Source: a phage. From it: 62,283 nt of DNA. Position 1 is the first letter of the stretch, and every line of letters begins with the position of its first letter. A program made the translations under genes and the position numbers. This document shows, piece after piece, positions 41,727 through 53,637 of the stretch. The stretch is from sequence record PZ793367.1; one strand, given 5' to 3'. The notes beneath the pieces are model-generated. The model made no database searches. It saw only the letters and a list, made by a program, of their open reading frames with translations, and had not been told where the DNA came from.

Positions 41727-44147
41727 ATGACCTATAAGCCTGAACAGGCGCAGTTGTTTTATGCCGCGCTAACTGGAATGCAAAACCCGCCGCTCGTATG
41801 GCAGTGGTTCTGTGACTATGACAAAGACCGACGCGACCTGGCTGGCTGGGAATACGCGTACATGAATCCTGCAAAGCTGGCTGACATTCAGGCTCGCGGT
41901 TGCGGCGTGTTCACGTCTGTCAACGGTTCGACTACAGGCGGTCGTGGTAAGAATGACATCGACATCTTCCGTGCAGTGTTCATGGATAGTGATGGTGCTC
42001 CGTTCCCGGACCAGTGGCCTGTTCCGCCACACGCTATCGTCAAGCGCGACGACACGCATTATCACGCCTACTGGTTTATCGACGGTGACTGCTCCGCTAT
42101 GGAGTGGATGATCGCACAGAAGCAGATCGCTCTGCACTTCGGTAGCGACGAGTCAATGGTAAACCCTGACCGCGTTATGCGTGTACCGGGATTCCTCCAC
42201 CAGAAGTCACTGGACAACCGCGTTCTCTACGAACTGGCGGAACTCCACGCTGACATGCCACGCTACAAACTGCGCGACATTATCTCCCGCTTCACGTTGA
42301 CCGACGAGAAGATGATGAAGATGGGCGAGTGGGTACGCCAGCGTAGCGCTCAGTACGTGGGCGGGATGGATGACTTCGACGACAATGAGCACAACTGTAA
42401 ACAGTTCATCACCTACCTGAAGAACCGCGCCGAGCAATCCATCAGCGGCCAGGGTGGTAACCATGTGCTGTTTAAAACTGCCGCCGCCGGACGTGACTAT
42501 CAACTGTCGCCGCAGAAAACCTACGAGTTAATGATTGACTACTGGGACGCCAACAATGAACCGCCGTGGGGCGATGAGATGTGGCCGACCGTCCAGAACG
42601 TCTACAAGTACAGCCAGAATGGTGTAGGCGCACGCTCGTTTGCTGCACGTATCACTGAGCCTGCCGCTATGCTGCCGGGTATGTCACTGACTCCGGTTGA
42701 GCAGGCTATCTATATGCCGGAAGCGCCAGTCGTTGACGAGAAACAACAGATGGCTGAATCGGTAGCACGTCTGGCCGCCGCTATTGAGTCCGGCGACGAC
42801 AGCATGATGCAACCTGACGACATGGTTTACAGTTCCAACCATACGCGTAACGCCATGCTGTTCATGTGGCTGCATTGCCGCAAGGGTGAGTACCTTGTGG
42901 ATGACGGTATCATGTACCAGTTCAACGGTAAAATTTACGAAGCACAAGCGCCGGACTTTCTGAAGGTTAAGCTGGCTACCGAGATGCAACTCAGCTTCCC
43001 GTCTGAGTCAACCATCAACGGTACCGCCAACCTCATCAAGCTGTTGCTGGCACGCTCTGCTCCGTCCAAATGGCCTGAGTGGAAAGGTGATCCCGATAAG
43101 GATACATCCGGTTTGATTTGTTTCAACAACGGTATCCTGGATATTAACGAGAATCTCTGGTATGAGCACACGCACTTACTGCGTATTCGTACCATTCTCC
43201 CGTTTGATTATGACTACAAGGCCACTTGCCCTACGTGGGAAAACTTCCTGCGTGAAGTGTGGGGTAACAGTAAATACGAACCGCTGATTGAACAGTTACA
43301 GATGTGGTTTGGCTATATGCTTATGGATGATACCAGTCAACAGAAGATGCTCATCATGTCCGGTACCGGGGGCGCTGGTAAGTCGACCATCATGCGTACG
43401 CTTAACAAAATGGTAGGTGATTACAACTGCGCGTTCCCTAACCTGAACGGCTTAACTAAAGATTCGCAACTGGCCGCTTTATTCGATAAGCCTGTGGCAA
43501 TCCTGAACGACGTATCCGATCCGTCACCATCCAACGCTACAGCCGTGGTTGAACGTATTAAAGGTATCGTTGGTCAGGATAAATTAACAATTGACCGCAA
43601 ATACCTGACGTCGATTGAGGTCAGTTTCCGGTGCCGTCTGAACGTTACCTGCAACGCCTTCCCGCGTTTGTCGGAATCATCGAACGCTATGCTGCGTCGT
43701 GGTCTGTTCTTCACAACCAAGCGTTCGTTTGTCGGCAAGGAAGACATGACACTGGAACCTCGCATCGACAAAGAGATGACTGGTATCATCAACTGGGCGA
43801 TCGCAGGTATCAAAAAGTTACAGAAGATTGGCAAGCTGGAAAACCACCCTTGCATGAATGACGATATTGAAATCTTCCGCATGTTGACATCGCCGCTTGA
43901 AACGTTCGTACAGGATGCGCTGGTATACCGCGAGGATGCTTACATTACCATCCCTGATCTGTGCAAACGTTACAAAGCGTGGTGCACACTGAACGAAGGA
44001 TCGCGCATGTTCAGCAACCAGTCACTGATAAGTAAGATCGGTGTATTCCCCGGCTTGAGTCTGGCGAAACGTGGCCGCGACTATGTACTGGAAGGTGCTT
44101 ACCTCCGACCGGACGATGAACCAGACAACGGAGTGATTTACGAATGA
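41727..44147 (+). CDS. bifunctional primase-polymerase / SF3 helicase
   Basis: N-terminal prim-pol-like AVFMDSD and THYHAYWF; Walker A GTGGAGKST in C-terminal half. Confidence 0.8.
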   Translation: MTYKPEQAQLFYAALTGMQNPPLVWQWFCDYDKDRRDLAGWEYAYMNPAKLADIQARGCGVFTSVNGSTTGGRGKNDIDIFRAVFMDSDGAPFPDQWPVPPHAIVKRDDTHYHAYWFIDGDCSAMEWMIAQKQIALHFGSDESMVNPDRVMRVPGFLHQKSLDNRVLYELAELHADMPRYKLRDIISRFTLTDEKMMKMGEWVRQRSAQYVGGMDDFDDNEHNCKQFITYLKNRAEQSISGQGGNHVLFKTAAAGRDYQLSPQKTYELMIDYWDANNEPPWGDEMWPTVQNVYKYSQNGVGARSFAARITEPAAMLPGMSLTPVEQAIYMPEAPVVDEKQQMAESVARLAAAIESGDDSMMQPDDMVYSSNHTRNAMLFMWLHCRKGEYLVDDGIMYQFNGKIYEAQAPDFLKVKLATEMQLSFPSESTINGTANLIKLLLARSAPSKWPEWKGDPDKDTSGLICFNNGILDINENLWYEHTHLLRIRTILPFDYDYKATCPTWENFLREVWGNSKYEPLIEQLQMWFGYMLMDDTSQQKMLIMSGTGGAGKSTIMRTLNKMVGDYNCAFPNLNGLTKDSQLAALFDKPVAILNDVSDPSPSNATAVVERIKGIVGQDKLTIDRKYLTSIEVSFRCRLNVTCNAFPRLSESSNAMLRRGLFFTTKRSFVGKEDMTLEPRIDKEMTGIINWAIAGIKKLQKIGKLENHPCMNDDIEIFRMLTSPLETFVQDALVYREDAYITIPDLCKRYKAWCTLNEGSRMFSNQSLISKIGVFPGLSLAKRGRDYVLEGAYLRPDDEPDNGVIYE

Positions 44148-44638
44148 AACCTTTCTACGCAAGCAAGACACCAAAGGAGTTACGCGATTGCTGGGGTACG
44201 CCCCAGTGGTTGATTGACCGCCTGTCGCTGGAGTTTGATTTCGCAATCGACGCGGCGGCAGATGAGCACAACAGAAAGTTCCCCCTGTATTTCAAGCAGG
44301 GATTAGGCTTTAACTGGGCGGACTTCTGCCCGGAAGGTAAATGGGTATGGAACAACCCTCCGTTCTCCTTAGTGGACCCGTGGGTGGATCAGTGGATACA
44401 GTGCAGCGAATCGGACCGTGGCGTGGTGTCAATCGTCAACGCACAGACTGCCGCTCGCTGGTTTCACAAGGCGCTGGAGGCTTGCTCGGAGGCCAGGTTT
44501 AGCATCGGGCGTGTGGCCTTCATTCATCCCGTTACCGGAAAGCGTGTAGCCGGAAACAACCTGGGGCAAGTGCTGTTCGTGTTTGAACCGGGCAAGCTGG
44601 GCGAAAAAAGAATTGGCACTTTCAAAGGAACCAAGTAG
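44144..44638 (+). CDS. dam: Dam-like DNA N6-adenine methyltransferase (orphan)
   Basis: CWGTPQWLIDRL N-terminus and NPPFS catalytic motif; no restriction partner nearby. Confidence 0.75.
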   Translation: MKPFYASKTPKELRDCWGTPQWLIDRLSLEFDFAIDAAADEHNRKFPLYFKQGLGFNWADFCPEGKWVWNNPPFSLVDPWVDQWIQCSESDRGVVSIVNAQTAARWFHKALEACSEARFSIGRVAFIHPVTGKRVAGNNLGQVLFVFEPGKLGEKRIGTFKGTK

Positions 44639-50424: not shown

Positions 50425-50711
50425 GACTTGCTTAACTCCATACCGTCAAGCGCGAAATCCAGGATAGCCGCCGGGTCTTTCTTGCGGATAGTCTCGGCAA
50501 AAATCTTGATGGTCTTCGTGCAATTGTAAGGCGTGACCAGCTTGTCATTATTACGGTCAACCACAATACACGCCGGGATAGTGTCCTTTTCTGTCAGGAT
50601 TGACGTGTTAAAAAAGTCGTAACGGTACGGCAACGGGGTGTTAGCGTGTGCTACGTTCATGCCTACAGCCATTGCCGCGTATGCAGCCACAATCATAATA
50701 ATGTATTTCAT
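50421..50711 (-). CDS. exported periplasmic protein
   Basis: N-terminal signal peptide MKYIIMIVAAYAAMAVGMNVAHA followed by two-Cys mature domain. Confidence 0.5.
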   Translation of the reverse strand: MKYIIMIVAAYAAMAVGMNVAHANTPLPYRYDFFNTSILTEKDTIPACIVVDRNNDKLVTPYNCTKTIKIFAETIRKKDPAAILDFALDGMELSKS

Positions 50712-50974
50712 TTTAAAGTCCTCAGTGATAGGAAAAGTTTTTCGCGGCGCGACTCAAACGCCCGGCGACAGTCGTCGATTGCGGCTTGTGCTGTAAGGTA
50801 CGCATTACTTTCGTACTCACGTTCATCGTTAGCGCGAGCAACGCATACCCATGTACCGTTACGATAACGCTTCAGTAAATGCGAATCGCGTTTGTATTGA
50901 CATGCACCCATATTGTCAAAGCTGATCAGTTCCCAGCCTTCCGGTGCGATACTCAGTGCTTCGTTTACGTTCAC
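50708..50974 (-). CDS. small protein of the xPxGW family
   Basis: SIAPEGWELIS motif; GTG at 50974 with AGAGGG RBS preferred because promoter P2 lies inside the longer ORF. Confidence 0.4.
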   Translation of the reverse strand: MNVNEALSIAPEGWELISFDNMGACQYKRDSHLLKRYRNGTWVCVARANDEREYESNAYLTAQAAIDDCRRAFESRREKLFLSLRTLK

Positions 50975-51005
50975 TCGATTAACCCTCTGTGTTGTTGGTA
51001 AACTA

Positions 51006-51034
51006 AATATAATTGATGGCTTCCATGCCGTCAA
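51006..51034 (-). promoter_or_regulatory. sigma70-like promoter TTGACG-17-TATATT
   Basis: Nearly identical over about 35 nt to the promoter at 61016-61044. Confidence 0.5.
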
Positions 51035-51043
51035 GTAAATCAT

Positions 51044-51256
51044 TTACCAACTAGCAAAACATTTATCAGTCGGTTGGCGGATCATCCATTCACCATAAAT
51101 AAACTTAATCGTTAGAAACGTGTCGTTGCGGTTACCTTTAATCGCCTTAACTTTTAGCGCCCGTCTAAGGTTCCGCCAGCGCGGCTCCCATACCAGATCG
51201 CCAGGGTTAAGTTTGCCGTAGGTAGTCAGGCGGAAGTGTGGTTTATTTGTTGCCAT
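51044..51256 (-). CDS. hypothetical protein
   Basis: Internal ATG at 51256 chosen to limit overlap with upstream gene. Confidence 0.35.
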   Translation of the reverse strand: MATNKPHFRLTTYGKLNPGDLVWEPRWRNLRRALKVKAIKGNRNDTFLTIKFIYGEWMIRQPTDKCFASW

Positions 51257-51896
51257 CGGATGGTACCCCACACAGCGCGTTAAGCGTGGACACATCAAGC
51301 GCAATCTCGGTTGACTGCGGTTTCTCAGCCGCCGGGATTAACTCAGCCGCTTCCGGCCAGGCTTTTAACAGCGCGGCAACATTACGGAACGGCTTAAGCT
51401 GGGCTTTCAGTGTGGCGTGAAGGTTCTCGTAGTCCTTGCGCAGCGCCTTAGCGTCAGCATCGATCGCCATAAGCTCATCGCGTGCGGATTCATACGGGTA
51501 GACCAGACCTTCACCAACAGGCCAGGCGGGTACGATGCAATGCTCGACGTCAGCGCCGCTGTCAGCGAACAATGACCGCGCCTCATCATAACGGTTGCCG
51601 TAGTGCAGACCGTCAATGCGTAAGTTGTGACTGTGACCGCACACGTTGACGTAAAAGTAATCGCTCGTTACCTGAGCGTGAACAGTGCCGAACGCTTTTA
51701 AGTCGTCATTGATATGGTCAGCATCACGCTTGAGCGCCAAGATTTCCTCAATACTCAAGCCGGATTGCTTCAGGAAGTAGTCACGGATACGCACAGCCAC
51801 CGCAGAGCGACGGGCGCAGATGGCCTTGTCGCGTTCGACGATACCGGATTTGTGCTCGGCGTTGCGTAAGATAGCGTCTATAATTGATTGTTTCAT
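51243..51896 (-). CDS. hypothetical protein adjacent to methyltransferase-like gene
   Basis: 217-aa ORF, start overlaps methyltransferase-like stop (TAATG). Confidence 0.5.
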   Translation of the reverse strand: MKQSIIDAILRNAEHKSGIVERDKAICARRSAVAVRIRDYFLKQSGLSIEEILALKRDADHINDDLKAFGTVHAQVTSDYFYVNVCGHSHNLRIDGLHYGNRYDEARSLFADSGADVEHCIVPAWPVGEGLVYPYESARDELMAIDADAKALRKDYENLHATLKAQLKPFRNVAALLKAWPEAAELIPAAEKPQSTEIALDVSTLNALCGVPSDGNK

Positions 51897-52594
51897 TATT
51901 TGTTAGCCTCATATACTGCACGGGCAAAGCCGCGCGGGGTTAATGATCGGATGGTTTTAGTCTTCGCAGACTTGCCGCCTAACTTGTGGTACTGTTTGCT
52001 GTACCCTGGCGGGATGGGTATTGGCAATTTAACAGGATACCGGAAGCCGTTACCCGTCCAAAGGTTTGTAGTCTTCGGATACATGTCGCGCGCTTCGATG
52101 TACTCAGGGAAGAACGGATTAATGTCATCTTCCGGCAGGTACCCGGCAAACTCCCACGGCTGGAAAGTATAATCAGGCTTTTGCCATAGCGTTGATAATA
52201 CTCCGCGCGGGTTCTCCACCATGTACGGAACGTTAAACCAGCACCCTAAACCCTCGGCAATGCGTGCGGTCTTCGTGGCCTCAATCTGAAAATCAGGATT
52301 CTTCTCACGCTTTCGCGGGAAGGCTGGCGCACCGGATACCGCTAAATCCGTGCACGGTGGGAAAGCAAAAATTAAATCCGGTGTTCCCCACTCACCCGCG
52401 ATCGCCTTCAGAGTCCACAGGCTATCAATCCAGGCGTTTACGTAGTGAATGTTTGGATGCTCCACTCGGCACCCGAATTTAGTGTAAGGCCCGTGGTCGC
52501 CCTCGTCCGCGTTGAAGCAGTAGACGGTATGACCCGCCTCCGCCCACGGCTGACCCATCAGGCCGGACCCGTCGAACAGGGACCAGATGATCAT
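51896..52594 (-). CDS. truncated DNA (cytosine-5)-methyltransferase-like protein
   Basis: SLFDGSGL (motif I FxGxG), FAFPPCTDLAVSG (motif IV with PCT instead of PCQ), MVENPRGV (motif VI ENV); only 232 aa, no obvious target-recognition domain. Confidence 0.55.
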   Translation of the reverse strand: MIIWSLFDGSGLMGQPWAEAGHTVYCFNADEGDHGPYTKFGCRVEHPNIHYVNAWIDSLWTLKAIAGEWGTPDLIFAFPPCTDLAVSGAPAFPRKREKNPDFQIEATKTARIAEGLGCWFNVPYMVENPRGVLSTLWQKPDYTFQPWEFAGYLPEDDINPFFPEYIEARDMYPKTTNLWTGNGFRYPVKLPIPIPPGYSKQYHKLGGKSAKTKTIRSLTPRGFARAVYEANK

Positions 52595-52827
52595 TGCATT
52601 TTCTCCAGACCTTTACGCGCACAGTCAACCATGCGTTCGATCACATCTTCCGGCACCATTGCCTGAGTGAGCATCACCTTGCTAACAACGCGCGATATAC
52701 CCACCTGCGCCCCGGATACATGGTCGTAACCACGCCAGACAAATTTAATACAGTGTGCATCAGTTGAGATTTCACAGCGAAAACCGTCGATGTGCACCAG
52801 TTCCAGCAGCTTCATAAAGTCAATCAT
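52591..52827 (-). CDS. hypothetical protein
   Basis: 78-aa ORF. Confidence 0.4.
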   Translation of the reverse strand: MIDFMKLLELVHIDGFRCEISTDAHCIKFVWRGYDHVSGAQVGISRVVSKVMLTQAMVPEDVIERMVDCARKGLEKMQ

Positions 52828-53003
52828 CGTGTTTTCTCCAGCCGCTCCAGTCGGTCAAATAGCGCGTCTATAGCATCATTGCGTACCAGCGGATCGACTT
52901 CTTGTTTGCGTCCGCACGTCAGGCAATAGACCTCATCTTTCAGAACCTGGCGTGCTGTAGGTTGCTCCACTGCCGCGCCGCACTTGCAATAAGCCCATGC
53001 CAT
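52824..53003 (-). CDS. small zinc-ribbon protein
   Basis: CKCGAAVEQ...CLTCGRKQ; internal ATG at 53003. Confidence 0.4.
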   Translation of the reverse strand: MAWAYCKCGAAVEQPTARQVLKDEVYCLTCGRKQEVDPLVRNDAIDALFDRLERLEKTR

Positions 53004-53004
53004 A

Positions 53005-53232
53005 TTATTTACCCCACCATTTCTTTTTCTTTTCCAGCCAGGCGCAAGCCTCGTTGATAGTGTTGTAATTCTGCGACATCTCGCCGTTGTAGCGTGCGAA
53101 ATATCCCTCATAAAATTTAACAATTTCGTTCCCGTTGCGATCCGCCCACACCGCCGAGTCGTTGCGACTGTCAAAGCTGGTCAGCTTAAAGCCGCCAGGT
53201 GTTAACGCTAAAGCCTGCTCGATGGTCATCAT
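53005..53232 (-). CDS. small protein of the xPxGW family
   Basis: ALTPGGFKL ... NEACAWLEKK pattern shared with family members. Confidence 0.45.
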   Translation of the reverse strand: MMTIEQALALTPGGFKLTSFDSRNDSAVWADRNGNEIVKFYEGYFARYNGEMSQNYNTINEACAWLEKKKKWWGK

Positions 53233-53423
53233 GATATTAATTCCCCTACCGTTACATTGAGCGCCGCAGCTAACTCGGTTAGCGTTTTCAGGCGCGGATT
53301 GTTCGCTTTAAGTACCATGAACAGAGCGCCACGTTTCCAGCCTGCGCGCCGTTCCACCTCACTAAGACTTATGGCCTCCCGCTCGGCCAGGTATTGCACA
53401 CGGGCTTTTAAATTAATCGCCAT
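53229..53423 (-). CDS. Cro/C1-type (XRE-family) helix-turn-helix regulator
   Basis: LSEVERRAGWKRGALFMV...LTELAAALNVTVGELI; ATG at 53423 sits 4 nt after a UUCG hairpin. Confidence 0.6.
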   Translation of the reverse strand: MAINLKARVQYLAEREAISLSEVERRAGWKRGALFMVLKANNPRLKTLTELAAALNVTVGELIS

Positions 53424-53429
53424 AGTTTG

Positions 53430-53443
53430 GGGGCCGAAGCCCC
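53430..53443 (-). other. GGGGC-UUCG-GCCCC hairpin in 5' leader of HTH regulator gene
   Basis: Identical core to hairpins at 3285 and 10395. Confidence 0.45.
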
Positions 53444-53451
53444 ACCCTTTA

Positions 53452-53637
53452 TTACTTTTCACCACCCTTAGCCACAGCATCACGCGACGTCTGCGCGTTC
53501 TCGGCGCGTTGCTGCGCGTTAGGTGAATCGGACTCAGCGCGCCCGGTTTGACCGGATACGTTTGGATTGTACCCGACGTTAGCAGAGCAACCAGCCAGCA
53601 GAGTAGCCAGGATGATAGCGATGATAGATTTAGACAT
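53452..53637 (-). CDS. small lipoprotein
   Basis: MSKSIIAIILATLLAGCS lipobox; AGGAG RBS at ATG 53637. Confidence 0.5.
   Translation of the reverse strand: MSKSIIAIILATLLAGCSANVGYNPNVSGQTGRAESDSPNAQQRAENAQTSRDAVAKGGEK

Follow-up and report, generated by a model that had tools for sequence, protein, structure and literature searches.

A small methyltransferase gene in a tightly packed operon

The stretch of phage DNA analysed here, sequence record PZ793367.1 (62,283 nt, called the window in the following), carries at positions 51896–52594 on the minus strand a small gene for a predicted DNA C5-cytosine methyltransferase (MTase), with an ATG start and a product of 232 amino acids. The evidence described below suggests that this protein is probably a functional stand-alone (orphan) S-adenosylmethionine (SAM)-dependent DNA cytosine-C5 MTase of a compact phage Dcm-like family (PHROG 757), encoded by an accessory gene, a reading that we hold with good confidence. 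The open reading frame (ORF) and the motifs LFDGSGL, FPPCT and VENPRG, on which an original prediction from the sequence had been built, were all re-derived from the DNA, and the strand was established as minus.

The window is closely related to Escherichia phage PTXU04, a Xuquatrovirus podovirus of 61.6 kb from German sewage, with 94.8% identity over the 3-kb region around the gene. PTXU04 gp66 has exactly the same sequence as the MTase protein (100% identity) and is named 'DNA methyltransferase' in RefSeq and 'cytosine DNA methyltransferase' in the HHpred re-annotation of a CRISPRi-ART study. With an identical protein already annotated and a family member experimentally characterised, the gene is essentially already known. 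At the nucleotide level the two copies differ at 11 positions, none of which changes an amino acid, and the genes upstream are far more diverged, indicating that the gene is under purifying selection in a mosaic neighbourhood. The mosaic boundary is sharp: the three small upstream genes at 52600–53200 are 66–77% identical to PTXU04 at the DNA level, and the genes on either side of this stretch 96–100%. A Shine-Dalgarno sequence, GGAG (52603–52606, minus), can be read 8 nt 5′ of the MTase ATG. The homologs, the PHROG 757 match, the Shine-Dalgarno sequence and the silent divergence from PTXU04 show that the ORF is a real gene and not a chance reading frame.

Both neighbours overlap the gene. The stop codon of an upstream gene encoding 78 amino acids (52591–52827, minus) overlaps the MTase start (ATGA), and the start of a downstream gene encoding a 217-amino-acid Nmad5 domain protein (51243–51896, minus) overlaps the MTase stop (TAATG). 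These overlaps place the MTase gene inside a tightly packed leftward operon.

A compact family with a 5-methylcytosine-forming member

Family membership was established through PHROGs, relatives, structure prediction and hhalign. The protein matches PHROG 757 ('DNA methyltransferase') end to end (residues 1–232, E = 2.1e-84) and has 1,563 homologs at E ≤ 1e-3. Searching with tblastn found homologs in 1,508 phage records, including Dhillonvirus, Drexlerviridae, Vequintavirinae, Phapecoctavirus and Klebsiella phages, many of them annotated as 'Dcm' or 'DNA methyltransferase'. An exhaustive profile search retrieved 2,043 representative clusters (E ≤ 1e-3), and the best 150 of these 2,043 are almost all 210–260 amino acids long. 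The 232-residue protein, which had been described as truncated, is thus of normal length for a naturally compact family. To our knowledge, at about 230 amino acids, this family is among the smallest C5-cytosine MTases known.

The characterised member is the Dcm of phage K42, which is 95.4% identical to the BASEL phage KarlJaspers (Bas06); K42 Dcm is the trigger of retron Ec86/Eco1, acting via methylation of the retron's multicopy single-stranded DNA (msDNA) (bioRxiv 10.1101/2023.08.16.553469). All K42 escapers of the retron had lesions in the 711-bp 'dcm' gene, expression of K42 Dcm was toxic in retron-carrying cells only, and 34 of the 35 Ec86-sensitive phages encode such a Dcm (bioRxiv 10.1101/2023.08.16.553469). 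Liquid chromatography–mass spectrometry found 5-methylcytosine (5mC) in msDNA to be high with wild-type K42 Dcm and low with C82A/E128A/K175A/K176A K42 Dcm or the empty vector, K175 and K176 having been picked as substrate-binding residues by superposition on DNMT3A (bioRxiv 10.1101/2023.08.16.553469).

The KarlJaspers gene bas06_0055, annotated as 'Dcm-like C5 cytosine methyltransferase', is exactly 711 bp long and encodes 236 amino acids with C82, E128, K175 and K176 present. Its product and the window protein share 57% identity along their full length (E = 3e-90), with C82, E128 and K175 of the former aligning with C81, E127 and K174 of the latter. The two proteins belong to the same family, have the same architecture (232 versus 236 amino acids) and share the signatures F-P-x-C-T-D, ENP, YPK-T-LW-G-GF and LGGKS-KTK-IRS-TPRGF, whereas K176 of K42 Dcm corresponds to Thr175 in the window protein. 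The genomic settings also differ, as KarlJaspers is a siphovirus of the Drexlerviridae and the window gene comes from a Xuquatrovirus podovirus with another gene neighbourhood. As an ortholog of the 5mC-forming K42 Dcm, the KarlJaspers protein places the window protein among the relatives of an enzyme for which 5mC formation has biochemical support. The initial description as C5-cytosine-MTase-like, with its motif I, catalytic Cys and ENV-type Glu, is supported. The retron study has reportedly appeared in print since (Wang et al., Cell Rep 43:114857, 2024).

Two longer proteins from the representative search contain the small C5-MTase domain together with a second domain. In P0241 (563 amino acids) it is followed by a C-terminal D12-class N6-adenine DNA MTase (PF02086, E = 2.5e-48), and in P0261 (348 amino acids) it is combined with an HNH_2 endonuclease domain (E = 6e-8). 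Both are putative fusions, which could also be gene-call read-throughs. The association with a Dam-type DNA MTase in P0241 supports DNA as the substrate of the small C5-MTase.

Motifs, predicted fold and chemistry

Motif I, LFDGSGL (F7-x-G9-x-G11; residues 6–12; 52559–52579, minus), is predicted to form the SAM-binding loop after strand β1, and its residues F7, S10 and G11 are invariant in an alignment of close relatives. Motif IV, FPPCT (residues 78–82; 52349–52363, minus), contains the predicted catalytic nucleophile Cys81 (codon 52352–52354), and motif VI, VENPRG (residues 126–131; 52202–52219, minus), contains the ENV-type glutamate Glu127 (codon 52214–52216). Among 95 diverse members aligned, C81, E127, P146, W179 and P187 are invariant, and F78, P79, T82, N128, P129, K174, T176, R216, P220, G222 and A226 are conserved in at least 90%. 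The Pro directly before the catalytic Cys is variable in the wider family (P/V/E/D), the Cys itself being essentially universal. An apparent loss of the Cys in part of the family was rejected as a regex artefact, because only the preceding Pro varies. The family signatures F-P-x-C-T-D, E-N-P, D-x-Y-x-K-x-T-x-x-W and, at the C-terminus, R-S-x-T-P-R-G-F are all found in the window protein and are conserved across both alignments.

The C-terminal part departs further from the canonical pattern. The segment YPKTTNLWTGNGF (52043–52081, minus) comprises the predicted strand β6 and a motif VIII-like element with K174, and resembles RARYFWGNLPG of DNMT3A by eye. It reads P-K174-T-T176 (family consensus P-K-K-T) and has no arginines, hence neither Q-x-R-x-R nor R-x-R; its correspondence to motif VIII is suggested by the modelled strand 176–181 and by the superposition of the K42 authors. 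Further downstream, LGGKSAKTK-T-IRSLTPRGFARAV (51914–51982, minus) comprises a conserved basic loop and a motif X-like segment. The GN of motif X is not present as such in the C-terminal part of the MTase; by eye, IRSLTPRGFARAV resembles motif X of DNMT3A, GRSWSVPVIRHLF (IRSLTPRGF against GRSWSVPV), a likeness that hhalign did not recover. Only about 30 residues lie between the β6 strand at 176–181 and the C-terminal helices (210–216 and 221–231 in the model), so that there is no discrete target-recognition domain (TRD). By our by-eye reading, this stretch between motifs VIII and X includes the conserved basic LGGKS-KTK loop, and the protein is indeed too short for a conventional TRD, as the original prediction had noted.

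AlphaFold2 with the family alignment gave a confident model with a Rossmann-like strand order (predicted local distance difference test score 90.4, predicted template modelling score 0.89). The top Foldseek matches in the Protein Data Bank (PDB) were solely the catalytic domains of DNMT3A, DNMT3B and DNMT3C (E ~4e-5, TM-score about 0.4–0.5), indicating a predicted class I SAM-MTase fold closest to known C5-MTases. Sequence and profile searches of the PDB gave marginal or spurious matches only, none of them significant, and no solved structure for the family. For the profile comparison we used DNMT3A residues 628–912, a query checked to be 100% identical to PDB 5yx2_A. The family profile aligned with it at E = 4e-5, significantly over motifs I–IV only, placing SLFDG on the SLFDG of the DNMT3A motif SLFDGIATG and C81 on the catalytic C710. 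A colinear secondary alignment placed E127 on E756, the ENV glutamate of the DNMT3A FENV motif. The C-terminal correspondences of motifs VIII and X were not recovered by hhalign against DNMT3A and lie beyond profile reach. With E. coli Dcm as a single target sequence, hhalign brought the three motifs I, IV and VI into register at a non-significant E = 0.084.

In the model, the compact core resembles the DNMT3 catalytic domain most. The phage protein shares with DNMT3A and DNMT3B the SLFDG-type motif I, the PC-x-DL motif IV, an unusually small recognition region and, seemingly and by eye, an 'RS' instead of 'GN' in motif X. The identity is just 14–20%, however, and DNMT3 has about 285 amino acids with a recognition loop of about 80 residues, whereas the phage protein has 232 with about 30 residues there. 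In the phage protein, K-x-T stands in place of the motif VIII RxR of DNMT3, and DNMT3 acts as a DNMT3L-assisted oligomer on CpG. The canonical bacterial C5-MTases (E. coli Dcm, M.HhaI and M.HaeIII) share the fold of the phage protein, and their motifs I, IV (PC) and VI (EN-) follow one another in the same order. They differ in that the phage protein has PCT instead of PCQ, ENP instead of ENV, and neither QxRxR nor GN; in size, with 327–472 amino acids against 232 without a discrete TRD; and in belonging to PF00145, which does not match the phage protein. Although many phage records carry the label 'Dcm', the phage enzyme and the host Dcm are, judged from these sequence comparisons, not orthologs.

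Non-canonical motifs VIII and X, together with a gene that proved non-essential in a knockdown screen, would also fit a remnant that has lost its activity, or a protein that binds DNA or SAM without catalysis. This appears extremely unlikely, given that neither the catalytic Cys nor the Glu varies within the family, that 11 nucleotide differences from PTXU04 have left the protein unchanged, and that the active homolog has the same non-canonical motifs. The missing TRD also raises the question of the substrate, which could be tRNA (as for DNMT2), free nucleotides, or single-stranded or hairpin DNA instead of duplex DNA, all the more as methylation by a homolog has been demonstrated only for retron msDNA, which is single-stranded and structured. 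We regard a physiological substrate other than duplex DNA as very improbable, because DNMT3 and bacterial DNA enzymes outscore DNMT2, the putative P0241 protein joins the domain to a Dam-type DNA MTase, and the methylated msDNA site lies within a base-paired stem.

A different chemistry, which the original prediction had also considered, has a precedent in CmoX (PDB 8yf3), a phage C5-MTase homolog that transfers a carboxymethyl group from carboxy-SAM (Cx-SAM). CmoX selects Cx-SAM by an Arg that replaces Asn304 of HhaI, and its gene is accompanied by one for CmoA and often by one for a ligase. The window protein is likewise phage-encoded, and its conserved Arg216 in the motif X-like segment may take the place of the motif X Asn. 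Cx-SAM is made by E. coli, the K42 study assayed 5mC alone, and the translationally coupled downstream gene encodes a 'nucleotide modification associated' domain; thus the enzyme might transfer a group other than methyl, or its 5mC might be processed further by Nmad5 into a hypermodified base. Against this, the homolog demonstrably makes 5mC, and the true MTase DNMT3A seemingly has an Arg at the same place (GRSWSV, by eye), so that the Arg is not diagnostic. CmoX is also larger (333 amino acids) and has SPPC where the window protein has FPPC. Neither CmoA nor a ligase was found in the PTXU04 re-annotation or among the scanned neighbours, the window itself not having been scanned gene by gene for CmoA. 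Nmad5 has no recognisable enzyme fold and persists in phage Bas95, where the MTase is missing, and in KarlJaspers and VLCpiS11a the MTase has no Nmad5 beside it. With the 5mC formed by the homolog, the putative Dam-type fusion and no CmoA or other modification enzyme in the PTXU04 re-annotation, the suggestion of another DNA or nucleotide chemistry was not upheld, and we consider it highly unlikely.

For a DNA C5-MTase the reaction would follow the superfamily mechanism, in which the target cytosine would be flipped out, Cys81 would attack C6 and Glu127 would protonate N3; the methyl group would then pass from SAM to C5, and β-elimination would free the enzyme. The protein would be essentially the catalytic core, with some 30 residues, the LGGKS-KTK loop included, standing in for a TRD. 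Given the near-absence of the latter, DNA recognition would have to come from the core loops, possibly in a DNMT3-like dimer.

An exchangeable slot and the possible role of the enzyme

The MTase gene occupies a variable cassette hot-spot, a slot bounded by the conserved 78-amino-acid gene on one side and the Nmad5 gene on the other. The slot holds the C5-MTase in six lineages, namely the window, PTXU04, Pondi and three metagenomic lineages (75–77% amino acid identity). In another lineage (22 contigs; loci L014/L015, 2426–3004) it contains a gene for a 192-amino-acid, Cys-rich HNH-like protein with a visible DRLDNSKPHNRNNVVPACGKCN motif and a Pfam HNH match of only E = 0.07. In HelliStehle (Bas95; locus L010) the slot is empty, and an MTase homolog is absent from the whole genome. 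The upstream gene is kept next to the slot at 72–81% amino acid identity in Pondi, L014 and L017. The identity of the MTase (~76%) is decoupled from that of the flanking Nmad5 (61–93%), which suggests cassette exchange.

The flanking genes, originally both taken as unknown, are so in part. The downstream product has a confident Nmad5 domain (PF18757, E = 1.7e-24), and the upstream gene gave no family match in profile scans. The ten neighbouring ORFs scanned include no nuclease and no other modification enzyme. Across all PTXU04 genes, the HHpred re-annotation names neither CmoA nor a hydroxymethylase nor a linked restriction enzyme, and only a Dam-like MTase (gp45). Over these neighbours and this re-annotation, the view that the MTase has no restriction partner holds. 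In the CRISPRi-ART knockdown screen of PTXU04, gp66, gp65 (Nmad5) and gp45 were all scored 'Not Fit', i.e. dispensable. The lack of a nuclease partner, the swappable slot and the 'Not Fit' score point to an accessory orphan DNA MTase.

A second orphan MTase lies elsewhere in the window, at about 44144–44635 (plus strand). It is a Dam-like N6-adenine enzyme of 164 amino acids, 100% identical to PTXU04 gp45, which the PTXU04 paper assigns to pfam05869, and its gene directly follows the primase gene. Two further ORFs lie near the MTase. The first (50708–51043, minus; 111 amino acids) weakly matches Tad3, an inhibitor of Thoeris, below the cut-off (PF25185, E = 0.026, 14.7 versus 27 bits), which may be due to chance. 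The second (53229–53483, minus), in the leftward accessory operon, encodes an 84-amino-acid helix-turn-helix protein of the Cro/C1 type (PF01381, E = 5e-5; PF13443, E = 9e-5), and PTXU04 gp70 is annotated as 'DNA Binding Domain Protein'. Promoter and terminator scans performed no better than on shuffled sequence. Near-consensus sigma-70-like sites, TTGAC(G/A)-17-TAT(A/C)TT, recur on the strand of the leftward operon (61044–61016, 55681–55653, 51034–51006 and 46809–46781, minus), and the total of promoter-like sites, including these, does not exceed the shuffled expectation.

The label 'nucleotide modification associated' for Nmad5 derives from gene-context predictions, and no recognisable enzyme fold was found for the domain. 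In Dhillonvirus, a missense mutation in nmad5 leads to escape from the Tmn defence, while deletion of the gene does not. The MTase and Nmad5 genes are adjacent in most Xuquatrovirus-type genomes. An obligate module of the two was rejected: Nmad5 is retained in Bas95 although the MTase is missing there, the slot is filled by the HNH-like gene in one lineage, Nmad5 is located elsewhere in ep3 and Dhillonvirus genomes, and the KarlJaspers Dcm has no neighbour of Nmad5 size. In the Klebsiella phage VLCpiS11a the two genes are about 8.5 kb apart. A functional link between MTase and Nmad5 is possible but unsupported.

The sequence methylated by the enzyme is possibly CCWGG-like. The literature contains no measured recognition sequence that we could find for the family, and nothing direct on PHROG 757-type enzymes among studies of phage methylomes. 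We also considered that an enzyme without a TRD may not be a CCWGG 'Dcm' but may have a very short, relaxed or structure-dependent specificity, for example with a preference for replication intermediates, msDNA or other DNA in single-stranded or hairpin form, and that in Xuquatrovirus-type phages its product may be read or further modified by the coupled Nmad5. This seems to us a distinctly unlikely arrangement; if true, it would constitute a two-gene DNA-modification module not yet described.

To look for traces of the specificity, site avoidance was scored against a maximal-order Markov expectation over the whole window (1–62283). Avoidance of many 6-bp palindromes is extreme and all-or-none. 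Twelve have no copy, namely TCCGGA (33.7 expected), TGGCCA (31.8), GGCGCC (27.0), AAGCTT (26.0), CTGCAG (20.5), CCCGGG (17.7), CCGCGG (16.7), CAGCTG (16.5), CACGTG (15.3), CCATGG (13.0), GCCGGC (12.1) and GCATGC (12.0), and one copy each is present of CGGCCG, AGGCCT, ATCGAT and ATGCAT. Others are not avoided (GGTACC 61/51, GCGCGC 36/41 and GTTAAC 31/27, observed/expected). Among tetranucleotides, CTAG is strongly depleted (12/80) and GATC moderately (0.62). The palindrome avoidance is common to PTXU04 and largely to Bas95, an exception being CACGTG, which the window and PTXU04 have purged and Bas95 has not (13/19.7). Comparison of the window and PTXU04, which have the MTase, with Bas95, which lacks it, gave no motif avoided only in Bas95 and hence no signal for the specificity; CCWGG is not avoided in any of the three.

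Several results weigh against a functional orphan C5-MTase with a protective role. The PF00145 profile, proposed as a check in the original prediction, gave a divided answer: it finds no match in the window protein even at E ≤ 10, and, in favour of an MTase, it matches 14 of 32 close relatives, weakly but genuinely and over motifs I–IV, with three exceeding the gathering score (22 bits) over these motifs only. The KarlJaspers enzyme, which is of the experimentally active type, itself reaches only E = 0.27, and a search of NCBIfam with the window protein returned zero matches. The canonical motif VIII (QxRxR), motif X (GN) and TRD are missing as such. The nearest experimentally tested enzyme is only 57% identical, a comparison made with the KarlJaspers ortholog and not with the K42 sequence itself, and activity is here assigned by homology. 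The CCWGG specificity of the homolog was assumed from the host Dcm and tested solely by mutating the CCTGG of the retron, and msDNA 5mC was low in MG1655 lacking the phage enzyme, although this host has a Dcm of its own (bioRxiv 10.1101/2023.08.16.553469). As to protection, the BASEL study saw no pattern linking phage MTases to restriction resistance in Drexlerviridae, and Bas95 shows the same restriction-site avoidance without an MTase.

The last two points, the dispensability of the gene in the knockdown screen, the slot that is empty or filled with an HNH-like gene in relatives, and the many 6-bp palindromes already purged would also suit a genuine DNA 5mC MTase whose main role is not restriction evasion. 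Such an enzyme might counter or modulate another DNA-sensing defence or time phage DNA transactions, or its gene might be a nearly neutral recombining cassette. We consider this rather unlikely, since the family is maintained in 1,508 phage records from many genera and since 11 nucleotide differences against no amino acid change argue for a selected function; moreover, the hosts of the laboratory screens lacked cytosine-sensitive restriction enzymes, and a benefit against such enzymes could not have shown. Orphan phage MTases are classically protective, and an anti-restriction role, as originally suggested, would be the classical expectation for this enzyme and is plausible.

As a functional orphan DNA C5-MTase, the protein would be expressed from the long operon of small accessory genes that runs leftward, with translational coupling to the genes on both sides, and would methylate replicating phage DNA and, incidentally, host DNA. 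Methylation would then protect, against methylation-sensitive restriction enzymes, those cytosine-containing sites that have not already been purged from the genome. In hosts carrying retron Ec86/Eco1, methylation of msDNA would betray the phage, as seen for the homolog. The family is found in more than 1,500 sequenced phages, including therapeutically used groups (Dhillonvirus, Drexlerviridae, Webervirus and Vequintavirinae), and its specificity, once known, would help to predict which restriction systems and methylation-sensing defences, such as retron Eco1 and type IV enzymes, a phage evades or provokes.

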